Assembly: GCA_048887225.1 (NCBI GenBank)
Contig: JBHLJY010000038.1
Location: 1-15,073 of the forward strand
Direction: 5' to 3'
DNA: 15,073 nt
Origin: Candidatus Hodarchaeota archaeon
GTDB taxonomy: Archaea > Asgardarchaeota > Lokiarchaeia > Sigyniarchaeales > SOKP01
Shown here: piece by piece, positions 1 to 15,073 of the stretch
How positions within the stretch are numbered: position 1 is the stretch's first letter
How the letters are laid out: every line of letters begins with the position of its first letter
Program-made: the position numbers and the translations under genes
The notes under the pieces: generated by a model
What the model was told of the DNA's origin: nothing
Seen by the model: the letters and a program-made list of their open reading frames with translations, nothing else
The model's database searches: none

Positions 1-263
1 ACATTCATTTATTGAATTATCAATCGAGATTGATTCAAGTTAGTAAAATTTATAAAAAAGAGAAGTTAAAACTAATTATTTCATAAATAAATCCTTCAAA
101 AGATTAAAATTAAATTATATTTTAAACTAAAATATGGTAAATTGGATCTTATTATTGTTAAAATCGTTATTGGAAAAATTAAATTTAGGAAAATTGAAAT
201 TGCAATGATTGATCATTATCATTTAAATAGGACATACAACATTTATAATACAAGGTATTTGAA

Positions 264-271
264 TATATAAA
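264..271 (+). promoter_or_regulatory. Putative archaeal TATA box for a leaderless or short-leader ORF1 transcript
   Basis: TATATAAA 31-24 nt upstream of ATG 295; weak evidence in an AT-rich background. Confidence 0.35.
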
Positions 272-294
272 TAGATAAAAAGAACGTAGACATC

Positions 295-2532
295 ATGAAA
301 ATAAAAATAGAGATATTTATAATAACTTTTATCACTTTATTTGTTTTATCGAGTATTTTGAGCTGTAGCTTAAACAGTAATCTAAAAACGACTGACAAAA
401 ATATCCAATATGATGAGATTAACAAAATTGACGAATTTAGAATTCCGAAAAAATTATGGTTTAATAATTCTATGGATCCAATTGTTATTGATAATAGTGC
501 CTCTAATAACTGGACGTGGGCTCGTAATCAGGAGTGGTGTCGATTTGGTAATGGAAGTCGGGACAATCCTTACATTATCGAAAACATAACAATAGACGCC
601 GGTGGTTCGGGCAATGGTATCCTAATTGAGAATTCTATAAATGTGTACTTTGAAATTAACAATTGCACGGTTTACAATTCAGGACCAAGTTGGGAGGTTG
701 CGGGAATTATATTAATAAACACAACTAAGGGAAGAATAATTAATAACACCTGTTCGCTAAATTCCAATGGGATAAGAATACATAAAAGTAATAACAATAC
801 CATCTTAAATAACACCGCAAAAAATAACGATCGAAAAGGGATCTCTATAACGCAAAGTCATAACAACACCTTATCGGGAAACATCGCGAATGATAATTCC
901 AATTATGGGATATACATAGCGTACAGTCATAACAACAACATATCGGGAAACACAGCAAATAACAACGATTATGGGATATATTTACAGTACAGTCATAACA
1001 ACACCATCTCATTTTGCACCGTCTTGTTTAATAATTTAGATGGTATCCACATACTAGGTCCCTGCTATAATAATACCGTCTCGGGAAACACCGCATACAT
1101 CAATGAATATCATGGGATATTTTTAAAGCACAATTTTGACAGCACCATCTCGGGAAACACTGCAAATAAAAACTCTTTTGGGATAACATTATCGTACAGT
1201 AATAACAACACCGTCTCGGGAAACACTGTAAACAACAATGTAATTGGGATAGGTATATTTATAAGTAATAATAACACTGTCTCGGGAAACACCTTAATTG
1301 CTGATACTTATTTTATTTATGAAAGTGGTGGGTCTATAGATAATACTATTAAAGATAATACCTGTTATACAACAATATTGCCTGGTGGAATAAATGAATT
1401 ATCAATTGAACCATATGGTGTTGACAACATCGATGTTAATCTATCAATAGCGCTTAATGATACCACCGCTGTACTTTTCTCTGCTTTTAATAATAATACA
1501 TCAGACGTCCCTCTTGATAATGGGTTAATATTTATGAACTTACAGCTTAACGAAAGTGATAATTTAAATCAAACCTTTGATGCTCCAATTAATATTACAT
1601 TAAAAATCGACGTTAATAAATATAAAGCAATAAATACTTTCTGGTTTAATGAATCTGCCAATGGCGGACAAGGAGCATGGATAGAAATTCCCTTTACTGA
1701 TCTTAGCAATGGTATAATAGTTATTTCCTTAAATCATACATCGCTTTTTGCTCTTAACGGGGAATTAAAGTCAGTTCATTTATCAAAGGACGACAATGAT
1801 GATGATATTAATAACGAAATTAACATCCTTTTTATCATAATTATAGCAATAATTATTGGATTAATGGGTTCAATCGCAGCTTCTTCAATATATTATTATA
1901 AAACAAGCGCTATGCCAACTAAAAAAGAAAGGCTTATAAAAAAACCTCTTTTTAAAAGTTTCGATGAAAAAATTATTAAATTACCAAATTTAAAGGAATA
2001 TCTTGATGATCAAATACTCCTTAAGATATTAGAAGAGAAAAACGGCTTGGCAAAGATTGCTTCGTTAGGTGATTTAAATATAACTACGATATCACCTGAT
2101 TTTTGGGAAAAAATAGATATGTTTGATTGGAATGAAAACGAAAGAGAGGTATTTATTAGAGAAATGCTCTCTTTACTACCTAAAGAGCGGCAGGAAATTT
2201 TTAATGATATGTTGAGGAAAAAAAATAGGAGAAACTCATCGATAAGATCCAATGAAATAATTCGTGAGAAAAGAAATTCAAAGGAATATCTTGATGATCA
2301 AATACTCCTTAAGATATTAGAAGAGAAAAACGGCTTGGCAAAGATTGCTTCGTTAGGTGATTTAAATATAACTACGATATCACCTGATTTTTGGGAAAAA
2401 ATAGATTTGTTTGATTGGAATGAAAACGAAAGAGAGGTATTTATTAGAGAAATGCTCTCTTTACCACCTAAAGAGCGGCAGGAAATTCTTAATGATATTT
2501 TGAAAAAATCAATGATAGTGAGAAAAAAATAA
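295..2532 (+). CDS. Single-pass cell-surface protein: signal/anchor, right-handed parallel beta-helix (NosD/CASH-like) repeats, juxtamembrane beta-domain with GPS/GAIN-like H-T-S-L-F-A-L motif, TM helix, tandem-duplicated cytoplasmic helical domain
   Basis: 745-aa ORF. Hydrophobic N-terminus; 'GNGSRDNPYIIENITID' cap; repeated 'GIxLxxSxNNTxSGNTANxN' coils; many N-x-S/T sequons; acidic linker DDNDDD; TM at about aa 511-535; two ~73-aa C-terminal repeats. Confidence 0.9.
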   Translation: MKIKIEIFIITFITLFVLSSILSCSLNSNLKTTDKNIQYDEINKIDEFRIPKKLWFNNSMDPIVIDNSASNNWTWARNQEWCRFGNGSRDNPYIIENITIDAGGSGNGILIENSINVYFEINNCTVYNSGPSWEVAGIILINTTKGRIINNTCSLNSNGIRIHKSNNNTILNNTAKNNDRKGISITQSHNNTLSGNIANDNSNYGIYIAYSHNNNISGNTANNNDYGIYLQYSHNNTISFCTVLFNNLDGIHILGPCYNNTVSGNTAYINEYHGIFLKHNFDSTISGNTANKNSFGITLSYSNNNTVSGNTVNNNVIGIGIFISNNNTVSGNTLIADTYFIYESGGSIDNTIKDNTCYTTILPGGINELSIEPYGVDNIDVNLSIALNDTTAVLFSAFNNNTSDVPLDNGLIFMNLQLNESDNLNQTFDAPINITLKIDVNKYKAINTFWFNESANGGQGAWIEIPFTDLSNGIIVISLNHTSLFALNGELKSVHLSKDDNDDDINNEINILFIIIIAIIIGLMGSIAASSIYYYKTSAMPTKKERLIKKPLFKSFDEKIIKLPNLKEYLDDQILLKILEEKNGLAKIASLGDLNITTISPDFWEKIDMFDWNENEREVFIREMLSLLPKERQEIFNDMLRKKNRRNSSIRSNEIIREKRNSKEYLDDQILLKILEEKNGLAKIASLGDLNITTISPDFWEKIDLFDWNENEREVFIREMLSLPPKERQEILNDILKKSMIVRKK
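780..1295 (+). repeat. Beta-helix coil repeats (~22-24 aa, ~66-72 bp period)
   Basis: Recurring DNA motif 'agt(c/a)ataacaacacc...tcgggaaacac' encoding S-(H/N)-N-N-T-x-S-G-N-T. Confidence 0.85.
1993..2498 (+). repeat. Near-identical intragenic direct repeat, 218 bp x2 (1993-2210 and 2281-2498)
   Basis: Manual alignment: offset 288 bp (96 codons), 3 mismatches (2119/2407, 2177/2465, 2200/2488). Confidence 0.95.
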
Positions 2533-2549: not shown

Positions 2550-3206
2550 TTGAGTATCTCTAATATAGTAGAATTAGAGGAAGTTGTTTATAATGCAATT
2601 CAAGATTATTTAAATAATAATAAAGCCTTTAATATGAATAAGATTGTTCCTTACTTACATAATATATTTAAAAATATATCTATAAATATTAATAAAATTG
2701 GAATTCAAAAGATCATAGCCAATTTAGTAAAAAAAAAAAAGATTGTTGTTGGATCAAAATTAACGAAAAAAGATATACTACTTATCCCTAAAAGGAAAAA
2801 AATATATGATTATATAAGAAAAAATCCAGGAACCTATTTTTTTAGAATTTTAAATGAACTAGGATTAAGTAATAATGTTGTTGTTTGGCATTTAAGTTTA
2901 TTAGAAAAATTTGATTTCATTAGAAAATTAAAAATAGATAATATTGATGTGTATTTTGAATCAAATTTGGATTTAAAAGAAATTAAAAAATTCTATATAC
3001 TTTCAAAAGAGAAATATAAAAACATTATTCAATATCTTAGAATTAACGATACTGGTATTACAAAAACTCAGCTTTCAACAGAACTTAAAATACATCATAA
3101 TACTGCTACAAAATATCTTAATTCTCTTTTAGAATTAGAAGTAATATCTTGTAGAAGAAAATCACGCAAGATATTATATTTTTTAAACGAAAATTACTTG
3201 TTCTAA
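2550..3206 (+). CDS. Multi-winged-helix transcriptional regulator (tandem ArsR/HTH_24-like wHTH, COG3398-like)
   Basis: TTG start 17 bp after the ORF1 stop. 'RKKIYDYIRKNPGTYFFRILNELGLSNNVVVWHLSLLEKFDFI' and 'IIQYLRINDTGITKTQLSTELKIHHNTATKYLNSLLELEVI' are wHTH patterns; the N-terminal ~70 aa is also helical/wHTH-like. Confidence 0.85.
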   Translation: MSISNIVELEEVVYNAIQDYLNNNKAFNMNKIVPYLHNIFKNISININKIGIQKIIANLVKKKKIVVGSKLTKKDILLIPKRKKIYDYIRKNPGTYFFRILNELGLSNNVVVWHLSLLEKFDFIRKLKIDNIDVYFESNLDLKEIKKFYILSKEKYKNIIQYLRINDTGITKTQLSTELKIHHNTATKYLNSLLELEVISCRRKSRKILYFLNENYLF

Positions 3207-6776: not shown

Positions 6777-7928
6777 ATGGTAAAAATAATGTCTGCTCTT
6801 GAAAGAATTCTAACGGTGTTGGAAGGAAGAATTCCCGATAGAATTCCAAGCTTCTGCTTGGGAGGAGATTTTGATTTTGTCGATAAATTTATGAAATCTC
6901 CTTATGCCTTAACCGATGAAGATATGAAACAATTAGATAAAGATAAAATATCATATAGAATACCATATATACAAGCAATAATAGCCAAATTTTCACAACC
7001 CGAAATATTACCTGGTGGACTTGATGCAAAAATCGACCTCTGTTGGCAAAATCCTAATATGCCCTTACCTATAAAACTTGATACTCTAAATGATTTTGTT
7101 ATGTACAACGGTGGCAAGTTTAAAATTGTTGTTCGTGATGAAGGAATTCCACACTGGTGGTACGCGGGTCCTGCACTTTTAAAAAAAGAAAATATCGAAG
7201 AATATTGGAGTAAAGAAAATGACTTAAAACCTCATGAATCAAGCGTTAGGAGCTTTGCAAAAATACGAAAAACAATGTTAAAAAAATATGATATTGTAGT
7301 TGCCCAAGGTCAACCTGGTCCTTTTGAAAATTGCGTTTTTGGAATTGGACATGCGAATTTTGCGCGTTTAGCGAGAAAAAATCCAAGTTATTTAAAACAA
7401 CTTATAGAATTTCAATGGGAAACGTTTGAAGAACCTATGTTAAAAATGATAATGAGAACCAAACCTGAAGTCGTAATGTGTGGAGATGACTATGGATATA
7501 ATAAAGGTCTCCAAATGCATGTGGAACATTGGCGTAAATTTATAAAACCTATTCTGGCAAATTACGTAAGCATCGTACATGATGAAGGAGCAAAATTTAT
7601 TTTACATAGTTGTGGAGATCTTCACGAAATTTTTCCAGATTTTGTTGAAATTGGCATTGAAGGTGTAGAATCGTTAAAACCAAAAAATAATGATTTGAGA
7701 ATGTATAGAGAAAAATATCCAGAAATTTCTCTTGTTGGAACTATTGACGATTCAGAGATGTTAACATATGAATCACCTCAATTTATAAGAAATTCAGTTA
7801 AAAAAACAATAAAGACTTTAGGAAAGAAAGGAGGTTTTATTCCAGGACCCACTAATTACTTATTAAATCAACCCCCGCAGAATATAGTTGCTTTATACAA
7901 AGGCATACAGGAATTTGGGAAATATTAA
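6777..7928 (+). CDS. Uroporphyrinogen decarboxylase / MtaA-CmuA methyltransferase superfamily protein
   Basis: 'SALERI...EGRIPDRIP' N-terminus, 'GDDYG', 'FILHSCG', 'GIEGVESL', 'LVGTID', 'GGFIPG'. The true start may be ATG 6789. Confidence 0.88.
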   Translation: MVKIMSALERILTVLEGRIPDRIPSFCLGGDFDFVDKFMKSPYALTDEDMKQLDKDKISYRIPYIQAIIAKFSQPEILPGGLDAKIDLCWQNPNMPLPIKLDTLNDFVMYNGGKFKIVVRDEGIPHWWYAGPALLKKENIEEYWSKENDLKPHESSVRSFAKIRKTMLKKYDIVVAQGQPGPFENCVFGIGHANFARLARKNPSYLKQLIEFQWETFEEPMLKMIMRTKPEVVMCGDDYGYNKGLQMHVEHWRKFIKPILANYVSIVHDEGAKFILHSCGDLHEIFPDFVEIGIEGVESLKPKNNDLRMYREKYPEISLVGTIDDSEMLTYESPQFIRNSVKKTIKTLGKKGGFIPGPTNYLLNQPPQNIVALYKGIQEFGKY

Positions 7929-9441: not shown

Positions 9442-12342
9442 ATGAGAAAAAATATAAAAGCAATATTTATTTTAATAACTTTTGGAATTGTTTTCGTCTT
9501 ATCAGGTATTAGCAATTATAATATCAGTAGCGTTCAAGAGGATAATGACAGAATCTTGGAAATTCGAGACGAAACTAATTTAAAAACTTCAAATACAGAT
9601 ATCATTATCTTATCTCCAGAAGATAAAATATACGCGGGACCGATGGACGGATACTATCCAGCAACTTACTCGTTTGATGAGCAAGCTGGGACTAATGGAA
9701 CTGATATTTCTTGGATTGATGTAGATAATCATTATATCTCTTCAATTGTTTCAGAAGTCAATGGGCATAAAAATGTTCTAGAACTTAATCTTACTTCTAA
9801 GCCTGCGAGTGTTAGACATAATATTACCACCGAGCGCAACAACGGCACGATCGAATTCTATGTAATGACAGCAAATAACTCAACAGTCTCGAAAATAAAT
9901 ATTGGTGATGGTAACGAAACAAATTCAATTGAAATTGTGTTTTTTTTCGATGGAAAGATATATTGTAATGATAAATTTTCTTCCGGAATTTTCATACAAA
10001 ATTATACTAATAACATTTGGTATCACTTTAAAATTGAATTTAACTGTTCAGAAGATTGGCATTTGTGGATCAATAATGTTAGTAAGGATGAAGGGAGTGG
10101 TTATGAATATATGGGTAATCCAACTAAATTTGATTGCATCGAGATTCTGCAGGGGACGCTGAAATGTTTTTATTTCGATGCTTTTGGATATAACTGGACT
10201 GATTACGAAATTGGAGATAATTTGAACGAAGGTTTATTACTCAGCTTTGAAAACAATACAAACTTTGATTGGATGGGTTATTCTTTAGACGGTCAAGCCA
10301 ACAAAACAATCTTAGGAAATAAAACAATTCCAATGCCGGATTACGGACAACATACGATTCAAGTGTTTGGAAACGATTCCTTAGGAATTAATTATGAATC
10401 TAACATTAGAAATTTTTACATAAGCCCAATAAATATAATTACTCCAGAAAATAAAACGTACAATAAACCGATGCGCGGCTATTATCCCGCCACTTACTCG
10501 TTTGATGATCAAGAAGCAGGGACTACTGGAACTGATATTAATTTCATCGATAAAGATCTTAATGCTAAGGCTTCACTTGTTTCAGGGGGCGTTAACCATA
10601 AAAACAATTTAAAAGTCCAAAATTCTGGTGGTCAGCCTAGTGGACACGCTATTGATGTTAATCCTGCGAATGGAACAATCGAGTTCTATGTAATGGCTGC
10701 ACAAACTAATCAGCCTAGTATGGTGAATATCAATGATGGTGGAATAGATAAATCGATTCATATTTGGTTTAATAACCTTGGAGAAATTTGGTGTCTTGGA
10801 GATGACACGGAGAAAATACAAGATTATAGTGCTTTCACTTGGTATCATTTTAAAATTAAATTTGAATGTGATACAAAAGGTGACGGAACTAATGATTGGC
10901 ATTTATGGATTGACGGGGATAGTATGGACGGAGGGAGTGGCTATAGTTATGTGGGCAATCCTACCAATATGGATTATATAGATTTACAGGCGAATAATGG
11001 TATTTTTTATTACGACGCTTTTGGATTTTCATGGGATAATAATTACGAGATTGGAGATAACATGAATGAAGGATTATTACTTAGCTGTGAAAATCATACA
11101 AACCTTAATTGGATGGATTATTCTTTAGATGGGCAACCTAATAGAACAATCTTAGGAAATACGACAATTCCAATGCCGGATTATGGACAACATACGATTC
11201 AAGTGTTTGGAAATAATACTTTTGGAACCATATTTCCATCTGAACTAAGACAGTTCACAATCGACACAATTGAACCGAATGTGACCATAATTTCTCCAAC
11301 GATGGGCATTTATGGTCCCACCTCACTATTAATTAACGCTTCAATAACGGACGATCTCTCTACTATATCATCAGCTAAAACCATGATAAACGCATCTATG
11401 CCATTTAACTTTAACATTTCTATGACTCAATCAGGAACTTATTGGTGGTGTACATGGAACAATATTTCCGAATACCAGAGTGGAGATTATAACATTACGA
11501 TATGGGCGATTGATGAAGGAGGAAATGTCAATCAAACCCAATTCATCGTTATCACATTCGACAAAAGTAGACCGAACGTGACCATAATTTCTCCAACAGC
11601 GGGCACTTACCATCCACCCTCACTATTAATTAACGCTTCAATATCGGACGAATTCTCTACTATATCATCAGTTAAAGCCATGATAGAGTTTTGGGTGCCA
11701 TTTAACTTTAACATTTCTATGACTCAATCAGGAACTTATTGGTTCTGTTATTGGGACAACATTTCCGAGTACCAGAATGGAAATTATACAATTAAGATAT
11801 GGGCGATTGATGAGGGAGGAAATGTTAATCAGACCCAATTCATCGTTATCATGATCGATAACCCTCCTATCGTTGGTGATGGTGATGGCAACAGTAGTGA
11901 TGGTGATAAAGAGAGTTCAGAGTGGTTATTAATTGTAATTATTATATCTGCCATCTCTGCAGTTGGTATTTTATCTGTCGTTTCGGCATTATTAATCAAA
12001 AACCGATCGAAGCCATTGATGATGCCTCAATCGAAGGTCCCTAAAACTTGTTCATTATGTAGTAAAAAACACACAGAATTTTGGATTCTATGTAAAGAAT
12101 GTTATGCTAAACAGCAAAAAATTCCTGTTTCAACTATATGTCCAACTTGTAAATCAAAGAAAAATATCGAAATCCCAAAATTACTCATTGACGAAGCAAA
12201 AACGATAATGACGATATCAATACCAAAAGGATTAATGTGTGATCACCATTTCCAAGCGTTTGTAGATAAAAATTTTAAGGTTCGTGGATATCAAAAAGTA
12301 GATTTTGAAGGCAATTCAAAACAAATTTTAGCCAAAAAATAA
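9442..12342 (+). CDS. Large single-pass surface receptor-like protein: 2x (Ig-like domain with inserted ConA/LamG-like beta-sandwich), 2x Ig-like, TM, cytoplasmic Cys/His Zn-binding domains
   Basis: 966 aa. Signal peptide; two ~276-aa modules ('GYYPATYSFD...GTIEFY...WYHFKI...WHLWI...FDAFG...WMGYSLDGQ...GQHTIQVFGN'); two 99-aa 'PNVTIISP...YxIxIWAIDEGGN' repeats; TM at about aa 828-852; three CxxC pairs and CDHH in the tail. Confidence 0.88.
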   Translation: MRKNIKAIFILITFGIVFVLSGISNYNISSVQEDNDRILEIRDETNLKTSNTDIIILSPEDKIYAGPMDGYYPATYSFDEQAGTNGTDISWIDVDNHYISSIVSEVNGHKNVLELNLTSKPASVRHNITTERNNGTIEFYVMTANNSTVSKINIGDGNETNSIEIVFFFDGKIYCNDKFSSGIFIQNYTNNIWYHFKIEFNCSEDWHLWINNVSKDEGSGYEYMGNPTKFDCIEILQGTLKCFYFDAFGYNWTDYEIGDNLNEGLLLSFENNTNFDWMGYSLDGQANKTILGNKTIPMPDYGQHTIQVFGNDSLGINYESNIRNFYISPINIITPENKTYNKPMRGYYPATYSFDDQEAGTTGTDINFIDKDLNAKASLVSGGVNHKNNLKVQNSGGQPSGHAIDVNPANGTIEFYVMAAQTNQPSMVNINDGGIDKSIHIWFNNLGEIWCLGDDTEKIQDYSAFTWYHFKIKFECDTKGDGTNDWHLWIDGDSMDGGSGYSYVGNPTNMDYIDLQANNGIFYYDAFGFSWDNNYEIGDNMNEGLLLSCENHTNLNWMDYSLDGQPNRTILGNTTIPMPDYGQHTIQVFGNNTFGTIFPSELRQFTIDTIEPNVTIISPTMGIYGPTSLLINASITDDLSTISSAKTMINASMPFNFNISMTQSGTYWWCTWNNISEYQSGDYNITIWAIDEGGNVNQTQFIVITFDKSRPNVTIISPTAGTYHPPSLLINASISDEFSTISSVKAMIEFWVPFNFNISMTQSGTYWFCYWDNISEYQNGNYTIKIWAIDEGGNVNQTQFIVIMIDNPPIVGDGDGNSSDGDKESSEWLLIVIIISAISAVGILSVVSALLIKNRSKPLMMPQSKVPKTCSLCSKKHTEFWILCKECYAKQQKIPVSTICPTCKSKKNIEIPKLLIDEAKTIMTISIPKGLMCDHHFQAFVDKNFKVRGYQKVDFEGNSKQILAKK
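11275..11860 (+). repeat. Two tandem 297-bp Ig-like (Big-type) stalk repeats
   Basis: 'ccgaa(t/c)gtgaccataatttctccaac' at 11275 and 11572; high nucleotide identity throughout. Confidence 0.9.
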
Positions 12343-12357
12343 AAATTAATCAAAACA

Positions 12358-12374
12358 TTTTTTTATTTCTTTTT
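12358..12374 (+). terminator. Putative archaeal oligo(T) terminator after surface gene copy 1
   Basis: T-rich tract 'tttttttatttcttttt' starting ~15 bp after the stop codon. Confidence 0.4.
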
Positions 12375-12378
12375 AAGT

Positions 12379-12675
12379 TTTCCAGATTTTGTTGAAATTA
12401 GTATTGATGGTGTAGAATCGTTAAAACCAAAAAACAACGATTTGAAAATGTACCGAGAAAAATATCCAAAAATTTCTCTCATTGGAACAATTGATGATTC
12501 AGAAATGTTAATATATGAATCGCCTGAATTCGTAAGAAATTCAGTTAAAAAAAGTATAAAAACATTAGGCAAAAAAGGAGGATATATTCCAGGACCTACT
12601 AATTTCCTACTGGATCAACCTCCAGAAAATATTGTTGCACTGTATAAGGCCATACAAGAATTTGGAAAATATTAA
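12379..12675 (+). pseudogene. 5'-truncated fragment (last 98 codons + stop) of a diverged uroD/MtaA-family allele
   Basis: Aligns without gaps to 7632-7928; 84/98 aa identical by manual count. Homology starts 63 bp upstream of the ORF-track start (12442); no genuine N-terminus. Confidence 0.9.
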
Positions 12676-12888
12676 ATTTAATAAAATAGATTATATTTTC
12701 TAAGTATGGCGACACAACACTTTTCTTGGAAATTTACTTAATTGTCAATTATTATCAACGACAATGACTCCATTTACTATAACGTAAAAAATTCCTTCAA
12801 GATATTGATGACCATCCATAATATGAATAAAAAATTTTTTAAAGGTGAATAATTATTATGTTGGTATATAAAGTGAGAATATACAGTC

Positions 12889-15073
12889 ATGAGAAAAAAA
12901 ATAAAAGTAATATTTATTTTAATCACTTTTGGAATTGTTTTCGCTTTATCAGTTATTACCAATTATAATATCAGTAGCGTTCAAGAGAATAATAACAGAA
13001 TTTTGGAAATTCGAGAAGAAACTAATTTAAAAACTTCAAATACAGATATCATTATCTTATCTCCAGAAGATAAAATATACGCGGGACCGATGAGCGGATA
13101 TTATCCAGCAACTTACTCGTTTGATGAGCAAGCTGGAACTAATGGAACTGATATTTCTTGGATTGATGCTGATGATAATAATATAGCTATAATTATTCCA
13201 GAAGTCAATGGGCATAAGAATGTTTTAGGACTAGATCCAAATTCAATAGACCAGAGTGTTAGACATAATTTTACCACCGAGCACAACAATGGCACGATGG
13301 AATTCTATCTAATGATAGCAGCTGCCGCTGATTGGTCAGGAATTTATATTTGTGATGGTAATAATGAAGATTCAATTATTATTATTATTAATCCTGATAG
13401 GACGTTTTTATGTTATAATGGTACTGGATATGAAACAATACAAGGGTATAGCAATGAAACTTGGTATCACTTTAGAATTGAATTTGACTGTTCAGACGAT
13501 TGGCATTTGTGGATCAATAATTATAGTAAAGACGGAGGGATGGGTTACGAATATAAAGGTAATCCGACTAAATTTGATCATATAAGTATTAGACGGGTTT
13601 TCGACGACATTTTATATTTCGATGCTTTTGGATATAACTGGACTGATTACAAAATTGGAGATAATTTGAACGAGGGATTATTACTCAGCTTTGAAAACAA
13701 TACAAACCTTGATTGGATGGGTTATTCTTTAGACGGTCAAGCCAACAAAACAATCTTAGGAAATGCATCAATTCCAATGCCGGATTACGGACAACATACG
13801 ATTCAAGTGTTTGGAAACGACTCGTTAGGAAATAATTATGAATCTAACATTAGAAATTTCTATATAAGCCCAATAAACATAATTACTCCAGAAAATAAAA
13901 CGTACAATAAACCGATGAGAGGCTATTATCCCGCCACTTACTCGTTTGATGATCAAGAAGCAGGGACTACTGGAACTGATATTGATTTCATCGATTCTGA
14001 CCTAAATAATAAGGCTTCAATCGTTTCAAAGTTTTATGGTCACAAAAGCGTTTTAAAATCCAATCCTTCTGATCAAGATCAAGTCCACGATATTGATGTT
14101 AAACCTGCGAATGGATCGATAGAGTTATATGTGAGGGCGGCACAGACTGATAAAGGTGGTTCTATAGTTATCGCCGATGGAGATATTATCCATTCGATTT
14201 GGTTATACTTTGATGTAAACGGAGATATTTGTTATGCTGGTGGTGGTACTATACAACCGTATGACGCTAGCACCTGGTATCATTTTAAATTTAAATTTGA
14301 TTGTGATATAGGAGGTGACAGAACTAATGATTGGCATTTATGGATTAATGGGGAGAGTAAAGACGGAGGGAGTGGCTATAGTTTTGTAGGCACTCCTTAC
14401 AACATGGATGGTATACATATAAAGTCGAATAATGGTATTTTTTATTACGACGCTTTTGGATTTTCTTGGGATAATAATTACGAGATTGGAGATAACATGA
14501 ATGAAGGATTATTACTTAGCTGTGAAAATCATACAAACCTTAATTGGATGGATTATTCTTTAGATGGGCAACCTAATAGAACAATCTTAGGAAATACGAC
14601 AATTCCAATGCCGGATTATGGACAACATACGATTCAAGTGTTTGGAAATAATACTCTTGGAACGATATTTCCATCTGAACTAAGACAGTTCACAATCGAC
14701 ACAATTGAACCAAATGTGGCCATAGTTTCTCCAACATCGGGCATTTATGGTCCCACTTCACTATTAATTAACGCTTCAATAACGGACGATCTCTCTACTA
14801 TATCATCAGCTAAAACCATGATAAACGCATCTGAGCCATTTAACATTTCTATGGCTCGAGGTGTAGGAAATTCTTGGTCTTGTAGATGGGACAACATTTC
14901 CGACTATTTGAGTGGAGATTATAACATTACGATATGGGCGATTGATGAGGGAGGAAATGTCAATCAAACCCAATTCATCGTTATCACATTCGACAGAAGT
15001 AGACCGAACGTGACCATAATTTCTCCAACAGCGGGCACTTACCATCCACCCTCACTATTAATTAACGCTTCAA
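12889..15073 (+). CDS. Paralogous surface receptor-like protein, copy 2 (partial; runs off the window end)
   Basis: ATG 12889 opens a frame with no stop to the window end (728 codons, translated manually: MRKKIKVIFILITFGIVFALS...HPPSLLINAS); colinear with 9442-11640. Missing from the ORF track because it has no stop in the window. Confidence 0.92.
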   Translation, partial: MRKKIKVIFILITFGIVFALSVITNYNISSVQENNNRILEIREETNLKTSNTDIIILSPEDKIYAGPMSGYYPATYSFDEQAGTNGTDISWIDADDNNIAIIIPEVNGHKNVLGLDPNSIDQSVRHNFTTEHNNGTMEFYLMIAAAADWSGIYICDGNNEDSIIIIINPDRTFLCYNGTGYETIQGYSNETWYHFRIEFDCSDDWHLWINNYSKDGGMGYEYKGNPTKFDHISIRRVFDDILYFDAFGYNWTDYKIGDNLNEGLLLSFENNTNLDWMGYSLDGQANKTILGNASIPMPDYGQHTIQVFGNDSLGNNYESNIRNFYISPINIITPENKTYNKPMRGYYPATYSFDDQEAGTTGTDIDFIDSDLNNKASIVSKFYGHKSVLKSNPSDQDQVHDIDVKPANGSIELYVRAAQTDKGGSIVIADGDIIHSIWLYFDVNGDICYAGGGTIQPYDASTWYHFKFKFDCDIGGDRTNDWHLWINGESKDGGSGYSFVGTPYNMDGIHIKSNNGIFYYDAFGFSWDNNYEIGDNMNEGLLLSCENHTNLNWMDYSLDGQPNRTILGNTTIPMPDYGQHTIQVFGNNTLGTIFPSELRQFTIDTIEPNVAIVSPTSGIYGPTSLLINASITDDLSTISSAKTMINASEPFNISMARGVGNSWSCRWDNISDYLSGDYNITIWAIDEGGNVNQTQFIVITFDRSRPNVTIISPTAGTYHPPSLLINAS

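Follow-up and report, generated by a model that had tools for sequence, protein, structure and literature searches.

We describe a predicted receptor-regulator pair from an Asgard archaeon, encoded in a 15,073-nt stretch of contig JBHLJY010000038.1 (the window; coordinates are positions in this whole stretch unless a locus is named). The receptor, an open reading frame (ORF) of 745 amino acids (aa) at 295-2532 (+), is a single-pass, N-out surface protein that combines a signal segment, a beta-helix, a GAIN-B/MAIN-type domain, one transmembrane (TM) helix, and two cytoplasmic copies of a domain that we call TAIL. Its partner, REG, is a soluble 218-aa regulator with three winged-helix-like units (2550-3206, +; HTH_24, E 6e-7; HTH_HVO_0163_N), which starts 17 nt past the receptor's stop codon. 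On balance, we lean towards a system in which a GAIN-like domain is probably cleaved and TAIL docks REG (steps 1-3 of the mechanism proposed below). The docked winged-helix regulator, which was absent from the original prediction made for this DNA, is the likely output of the receptor.

Whether or not cleavage occurs, Loki-type archaea seem to make wide use of TAIL-REG as a module linking receptors to regulators; it lies outside Pfam families, and our literature searches did not find it described. The concept of a microbial GAIN-like domain is not new, because Microbial Autoproteolysis INducing (MAIN) domains, such as that of B. subtilis YfkN, have already been described by Brogan and Rudner (10.64898/2026.05.12.724683). 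The new part is thus not the MAIN-type motif but the cytoplasmic docking domain and its regulator.

Fold of the juxtamembrane domain

Computation shows that aa 358-494 (1366-1776, +), as modeled, form a cysteine-free GAIN-B/ZU5-fold domain between the beta-helix and the TM helix. The AlphaFold2 model is an all-beta sandwich (predicted local distance difference test [pLDDT] 96.3; predicted TM-score [pTM] 0.88). A GAIN-B-like domain had been predicted at aa ~360-490, and structure comparison bears this out: against 48,161 chains, GAIN or ZU5 domains take 10 of the first 11 places. The top matches range in Z from 7.2 to 8.5, where a Z of 7-8 is common background for the search tool, and all six matches with a Z of at least 8 are GAIN or ZU5. 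They include ankyrin ZU5 (Z 8.5, root-mean-square deviation 3.9, 116 residues aligned) and the GAIN domains of BAI3 (Z 8.4, deviation 3.7, 119 aligned), CD97 (8.3), and CELSR1 (8.3). The two groups are tied, with ZU5 at 8.5, 8.2, and 7.8 and the related FIIND chains at 5.8-6.9. The nearest Pfam-bearing atlas cluster is also ZU5, at 0.85, which we treat as a lead only.

The alignments also place the putative cleavage site. H481-T482-S483 lies in the turn preceding the last strand, and the alignments to five GAIN chains (6v55, 5kvm, 7qu8, 8hc0, and 8vti) end at model residue 125, which is T482. The last aligned residue of the GPR56 chain is 382, and the GPR56 cleavage site is reported as H381-L382/T383 (PMC13123842). 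T482 stands opposite the GPR56 P1 residue L382, so that T482/S483, the bond proposed in the original prediction, lines up with the bond that GAIN domains cut. For two NLRP1 chains, the alignment runs one residue further, to model residue 126. The ends of the other four GAIN alignments presumably likewise mark P1.

Other searches were less telling. Foldseek gave query TM-scores of 0.48-0.61 for HormR-GAIN, CD97-Fab, and CELSR1 chains and 0.44 for full-length CD97, none of them at E <= 0.001; its top rows were MYDGF, rejected at 0.35-0.39 against the GAIN and ZU5 rows at 0.5-0.6. The GPS-like character of the motif did not extend to a profile match: neither PF01825 nor a GAIN or ZU5 (PF00791) profile matched the receptor domain, and a sequence search of solved structures with the domain alignments matched no GAIN chain.

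Conservation of the putative cleavage turn

The residues on which the motif was first recognized are all in place: F449 (1639), W450, G460, A461, W462, and I477-S-L-N480-H481 (1735)-T482-S483 (1741)-L-F-A-L487. They fall into an aromatic strand with the Trp of the GPS-like region (F449-W450-F451-N452...G460-A-W462; 1639-1680, +), a last beta-turn N480-H481-T482-S483 (1732-1743, +; between model strands E117-122 and E127-134) with H481 as putative base, T482 as P1, and S483 as nucleophile, and the last strand, from S483 onward (1741-1776, +; model strand E127-134), which would remain with the membrane fragment after cleavage. As had been noted, the region is free of cysteine (Cys occurs only at 24, 82, 124, 153, 241, 257, and 357, with none in 358-745) and lies just outside the TM helix, whose hydropathy peak (aa ~509-531; 1819-1887, +; maximum 2.98) begins 22 residues past L487, after an acidic linker. 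Two features of the turn had been overlooked. N480-H481-T482 is an N-x-T sequon, and the P1 residue is Thr, in contrast to the hydrophobic residue of the canonical motif.

The turn is conserved among homologues, as the original prediction implied. A search with aa 358-494 gave 67 representatives, 54 of which were aligned with four other homologues and the window sequence (59 rows; median pairwise identity 34%). W462 is invariant (59/59), 55 rows retain H481, 56 retain S/T483, and 54 have the full H-x-S/T; positions 449, 450, and 451 are aromatic in 52, 56, and 57 rows, respectively. Turn types include HTS (28 rows), HAS (11), HLS (10), and HLT (1). The 13 representatives outside the alignment are mostly very long or fragmentary proteins, of which eight carry H-x-S, one has lost the motif, one is cut before it, and three could not be aligned. 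In a wider set, H-x-S/T is present in 64 of 74 distinct domains. Distant Asgard relatives reached by profile mostly carry the canonical HFS or HLT turns, some in tandem. Surface proteins of other Asgard classes have three tandem GAIN-like domains, each with H-F-S (L135:1390-2697, -; L143:738-2393, +).

Glycosylation does not explain this conservation, because H-x-S/T is kept in 25 of the 27 aligned rows that lack a sequon at 480; conservation of a sequon alone is thus ruled out. We also searched the 4,866 ORFs of the genome for H-x-S/T-x-F/Y-small-aliphatic with a W within the preceding 30 residues. Only four matched, three of them being the receptor and its two closest paralogues. Judged by sequence, the motif is beyond chance. 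Its alignment to the GPS might be refined: the GPS pattern reads F-W-N, and the earlier pairing of F449-W450 with its F-W may be one residue off, as W450-F451-N452 would probably fit better.

The GAIN-like family is present in at least 28 of the 161 genomes of the class and at least 49 of 400 in the phylum. The window's own clade (9 rows; SH-aLRT support 98 in a quick tree of 134 columns) uniformly combines NHTS with TAIL (9/9). One homologue, in genome G036, is broken by a single TGA stop (L096:97-2214, +).

A cytoplasmic domain predicted to dock a winged-helix regulator

The cytoplasmic side of the receptor carries two copies of an unannotated helical domain of ~75 residues (TAIL), at aa 566-640 (1990-2214, +) and aa 662-736 (2278-2502, +). 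At the DNA level, the repeat spans 265 nt at 93% identity with a period of 288 nt, which points to a recent duplication. An assembly artefact was rejected: a contig from another study (X2 record 12) bridges the repeat, and P0003 also has two copies. When longer TAIL proteins were sought, P0001 and P0003 were the only ones to turn up. The modeled domain consists of helices (pLDDT 80); no Pfam family matches more than 3 of the 58 members, and neither an atlas match nor a solved relative was found (best Z 5.2), failures that show neither a new fold nor a known one. Among REG homologues, 53 of 54 match PF24266. Within the class, TAIL was found in 116 of 161 genomes and REG in 139; for the same family, the TAIL count is 111 of 134.

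Gene order, gene fusion, and a complex model all point to TAIL as a partner of REG, and we consider it very probable that the two bind. The host genome has four paralogues of the GAIN-like domain. Each of the three TAIL-bearing paralogues is followed by a REG paralogue, a fourth close REG comes after a TAIL of which a contig edge leaves only the end, and the short-tailed paralogue has no REG beside it. When 30 loci were picked by TAIL score alone, a same-strand REG came next in 29, the window being one of them. Of the 80 TAIL ORFs for which there is a locus, 73 have a neighbouring REG, 3 are fused to one, and 4 have none, in a set that is biased because 30 loci were picked by REG score and 40 regions by hand. 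All of these counts are descriptive rather than statistical, since related loci are not independent.

In the three fused cases, all from genome G031, TAIL and REG form one ORF with a short linker (L064:481-5139, -; L065:398-3397, -; L066:350-3682, -), beside many split pairs. These receptors would be natural one-component versions of the module. The complex model of REG with TAIL copy 1 has an ipSAE of 0.77 (runs 0.77, 0.78, and 0.76), against 0.01 for the best control; the mark set for this score is reached by 116 of 157 solved but 2 of 215 mismatched pairs, counts that are only rough with our own alignments. The runs have at least 95% of their contacts in common, the partner pLDDT is 85 or higher, and no solved complex resembling TAIL-REG was found. 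The REG side of the interface comprises 40 residues: 28 from aa 1-75, 12 from aa 76-140 (among them the invariant W113), and none from aa 141-218. Conservation is slightly higher in interface columns than elsewhere (REG 0.65 vs 0.57; TAIL 0.51 vs 0.43). The model supports binding, and the third REG unit would bind DNA while TAIL holds REG at the membrane.

TAIL and REG also occur outside this arrangement. Two stand-alone soluble TAIL ORFs of ~100 aa (L024:1474-1767, -; L051:1977-2306, +) have no REG gene directly downstream and are possibly cytoplasmic REG decoys. A 344-aa form fuses hydrophobic N-terminal segments straight to REG without TAIL (L067:671-1702, -), and REG frames of ~350 aa recur in many of the class genomes searched for REG. 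Two paralogous receptor-regulator pairs (L002:6436-9480, +; L003:1702-2979, +) adjoin ORFs whose translations, read by eye, resemble PAS-repeat histidine kinases, receivers, and PAS/GAF proteins. Window positions 170-297, upstream of the receptor gene, and the DNA in front of the C1 paralogue have in common an A/T-rich block that includes a TATA-like element; this block is a candidate promoter or REG operator.

Possible self-cleavage and its alternatives

We lean slightly towards self-cleavage at T482/S483, with H481 activating S483. A conserved His and Ser in the right turn favor it, and nearly all bacterial MAIN domains assayed are reported to be cleaved, YfkN at HF/S (10.64898/2026.05.12.724683). 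Stacking of a Phe on the catalytic His is reported to matter for cleavage (10.1101/2023.03.12.532270). In the receptor, W450 is a candidate for this His-stacking aromatic, at a position that is aromatic in 56 of 59 rows. The domain is also a test case for self-cleavage by an H-T-S turn that carries a sequon.

Several observations weigh against the fold assignment, cleavage, or the link to REG. The P1 Thr is polar, unlike the hydrophobic X described for the MAIN motif (10.64898/2026.05.12.724683). In CL1, the P1 Leu is reported to sit in a hydrophobic pocket, where L837A impairs cleavage, and the GAIN turn is held by two disulphides (PMC3321182); the receptor domain lacks both disulphides. ADGRB2 has an HLS turn and yet is uncleaved, so HXS/T is insufficient (10.1101/2023.03.12.532270). 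The Z of ~8 is close to the search background of 7-8, and Foldseek found no match at E <= 0.001; because of this, the case for the fold rests on the crowding of GAIN and ZU5 chains among the top matches and on the register of the turn. Furthermore, a GAIN-like juxtamembrane domain is found in only 19 of 88 TAIL ORFs (11 with H-x-S and 8 without His), and for the H-T-S clade REG adjacency was seen only in the host genome, the one outside locus examined (L114) having no downstream REG.

The alternative that survives best is an uncleaved structural module. Here the GAIN/ZU5 fold would be a rigid juxtamembrane spacer, with H and S kept for turn geometry and T482 for an N480 glycan, and TAIL-REG would signal by conformational change or clustering. 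The polar P1 residue is as this explanation would have it, as are the eight His-less domains among the 19 GAIN-like TAIL receptors, and GAIN domains that resist cleavage despite a canonical motif are reported (10.1101/2023.03.12.532270). The sequon on the turn also fits: of 74 domains, 32 have both N at -1 and T/S at P1, 30 have neither, and 12 have just one, counts uncorrected for kinship. Against this stand the persistence of H and S, among the domain's most conserved columns, in the sequon-less rows, and the cleavage of nearly all bacterial MAIN domains assayed. We regard the uncleaved module as possible, although unlikely.

Plain MAIN-type shedding is a more improbable alternative still. 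The cut would only release the beta-helix, as an adhesin or polysaccharide binder, and TAIL-REG would be unrelated to it, for instance an autoregulatory device in which receptor copy number titrates the regulator. Most family members are short-tailed, and REG is absent within ~1.5 kb of all 19 short-tailed GAIN-like loci examined (L084-L102). Matches to Loki-CTERM occur in 4 of 59 family members and are weak (best E 4e-4), and the C-terminal fragment of MAIN proteins has no signalling reported in the preprint (10.64898/2026.05.12.724683). However, the intact turn is always joined to TAIL in the window's clade, and many ectodomains on one TAIL-REG chassis are the pattern of sensors. Lastly, a fortuitous resemblance, in which an ordinary beta-sandwich carries a conserved N-H-T-S as a mere glycosylation site, could account for the absence of Pfam GPS, GAIN, or ZU5 matches and of sequence matches to solved GAIN chains and for a Z near background, but it is extremely improbable and already largely refuted by the GAIN, ZU5, and FIIND chains that dominate the best structural matches, cover the whole domain, and agree exactly in P1 register, by the H-x-S that persists without a sequon, and by the HFS relatives reached by profile.

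A possible route from ectodomain loss to gene control

We propose a mechanism for the cleaved receptor and its docked regulator. Step 1 is the architecture that computation shows, a GAIN-B/ZU5-fold domain with H481-T482-S483 in the turn at which GAIN and MAIN domains are cut. In step 2, H481 would activate S483 for an N-O acyl shift that cuts the chain at T482/S483; the beta-sheet would then keep the two halves together until the ligand-bound beta-helix comes under force and the ectodomain is pulled away. In step 3, each TAIL domain would bind the first two winged-helix units of REG, which would be held at the membrane with its third unit free of contacts; the duplicated tail could hold two REG chains. 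Loss of the ectodomain might then alter the state or stability of the membrane stub, for example through rhomboid or M50 proteolysis, so that REG is released or switched. That ectodomain loss changes REG activity is a tentative step, which we consider somewhat unlikely. Rhomboid and M50 protease genes are present in the genome, but this carries little weight because they were found in 14 of 14 control genomes as well. A presenilin-type protease (PF06550) was not found in the genome, which is 98% complete.

Taken as a whole, the receptor could be a prokaryotic mechanoreceptor, in which the beta-helix binds a surface or polymer, force removes an ectodomain pre-cut at T482/S483, the stub frees or switches the winged-helix regulator, and a glycan on N480 may tune cutting. 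We hold this full version to be doubtful. If true, it would be a GAIN-fold receptor with cis signalling among the archaeal relatives of eukaryotes.

TAIL-REG is found under many different ectodomains. A GAIN-like domain is present in only 19 of the 88 TAIL ORFs, 8 of them without the His, so the module does not require cleavage, and the coupling of cleavage to gene control is put forward here as a hypothesis. We propose that TAIL-REG is a general, swappable signalling chassis of the archaeal family, with the GAIN-like domain as one input module. Among the GAIN-like rows, L013 and L075 represent a single gene, P0005 and P0007 have a domain in common, and seven of the eight His-less rows match only weakly (E 1e-3 to 1e-9 in a local search). 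In His-less receptors L013/L075, L025, L071, L083, L150, L153, and L113/L145, the residue is E, D, S, or N. On sequence grounds, these receptors may serve as natural cleavage-dead controls.

Other receptors show how varied the input can be. The commonest TAIL receptor (L005-L063, e.g., L005:1489-2838, -, and L049:2185-3489, -) is ~450 aa long and accounts for 26 of the 88 ORFs by a loose motif test. This family has no GAIN-like match, an acidic N-terminus of the DDDGIDDDFE type, and often H-D-P just before the TM helix. Asp-Pro bonds are acid-labile, and one could speculate that this bond is a second, acid-labile self-cleavage site. In P0040 (456 aa), a GAIN-like domain (D-H-A-S), a TM helix, a Cys-rich zinc-finger-like stretch, and a TAIL domain share one chain. 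The module extends beyond single-pass receptors, since L063:2185-3072 (-) carries TAIL on a multi-pass membrane protein with at least five hydrophobic segments and REG downstream.

Relation to known autoproteolytic systems

MAIN domains are among the closest known systems. The receptor shares with them a GAIN-B-like sandwich with an H-x-S turn before the last strand and the order of signal peptide, adhesion or enzyme domain, cleavable domain, and anchor. It differs in having Thr inside a sequon at P1, where YfkN has Phe (HF/S), and in being anchored by a TM helix with a cytoplasmic docking domain rather than by sortase, SLH, or wall anchors. We file the receptor domain as MAIN-type, that is, as working like MAIN, and not as a proven member, because its P1 is polar. 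Profile links from the window domain reach only the Asgard HFS and HLT domains, and a plasmid search for a bacterial MAIN bridge found none for the window domain or L137 and three weak Halorussus hypothetical proteins for L143.

MAIN domains are reported in archaea too, and MAIN proteins have, as far as is known, no transmembrane signalling; the preprint speculates that release without cis signalling is the ancestral mode (10.64898/2026.05.12.724683). The main text of the preprint mentions neither Asgard nor Loki archaea, and Asgard or TM-anchored entries may be among the 15,000 homologues in its supplementary tables. Whether a membrane-anchored fragment signals is left open there; here, a GAIN-fold domain sits on one TM helix with a predicted transcription-factor partner, in the lineage closest to eukaryotes. 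Searches of the literature for an Asgard GAIN domain, Asgard autoproteolysis, Loki-CTERM, and Asgard membrane regulators returned nothing relevant within a coverage that leaves out most subscription papers. Prokaryotic domains of the GAIN/ZU5/Nup98 type were reportedly treated by Liao, Pei, Cheng and Grishin in 2014.

The adhesion-GPCR-like layout suggested for the receptor holds for its outer half and not for its inner half, which has one TM helix instead of seven. With the GAIN-B/GPS of adhesion GPCRs (CL1 4DLQ, BAI3 4DLO, CD97, GPR56, and CELSR1) and polycystin-1, the receptor shares the fold (Z 7.2-8.4), the P2-P1-P1' register, and a position just outside the membrane below an adhesion-type ectodomain. 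It lacks the disulphides, the seven TM helices, G-protein coupling, and a PF01825 match, and the beta-helix stands directly upstream of the all-beta domain with no helical GAIN-A subdomain. Identity as an adhesion GPCR is thus ruled out. ZU5 and FIIND domains (ankyrin, UNC5b, NLRP1, and CARD8) tie with GAIN in fold, but PF00791 gives no match and the NLRP1 chains end one residue off; in eukaryotes, ZU5 and FIIND domains are cytoplasmic.

The closest working precedent for a step from ectodomain loss to a regulator may be, by analogy, RsgI/SigI. In this system, a constitutively self-cleaved SEAL domain retains the ectodomain, force drives its release, and intramembrane proteolysis frees a sigma factor (10.1101/2023.06.27.546760). 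The proposed logic is the same, from self-cleavage through a retained ectodomain to the release of a cytoplasmically held transcription factor, and the likeness is one of analogy only: the SEAL fold is SEA-like where the receptor domain is GAIN/ZU5, and the partner is a sigma factor and not a winged-helix protein. The receptor is also N-out, whereas RsgI is N-in.

Other features of the window

A putative N-terminal hydrophobic signal segment (aa 1-26; 295-372, +; hydropathy windows 1-27) opens the receptor. The protein was rightly described as a beta-helix protein: aa 93-356 (571-1362, +) match PF05048 (NosD, E 1.3e-40) and PF13229 (Beta_helix, E 5.4e-29) as a right-handed parallel beta-helix ectodomain, which is rich in N-glycosylation sequons. 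The name NosD, carried by close homologues, was rejected as a function because TIGR04247 scores 75 bits against a cut-off of 300. The named close homologues are Promethearchaeota or Lokiarchaeota proteins, one of them labelled Hodarchaeota, in keeping with the Asgard lineage that had been thought probable, and the genome is probably that of a Loki-type Asgard archaeon.

Further downstream, window positions 9442-15072 (+) encode two surface proteins that are near duplicates of each other and have lectin-like and Ig domains. The DNA separating them includes, at 12442-12675, a duplicated piece of the 3' part of the URO-D-like gene (6777-7928).

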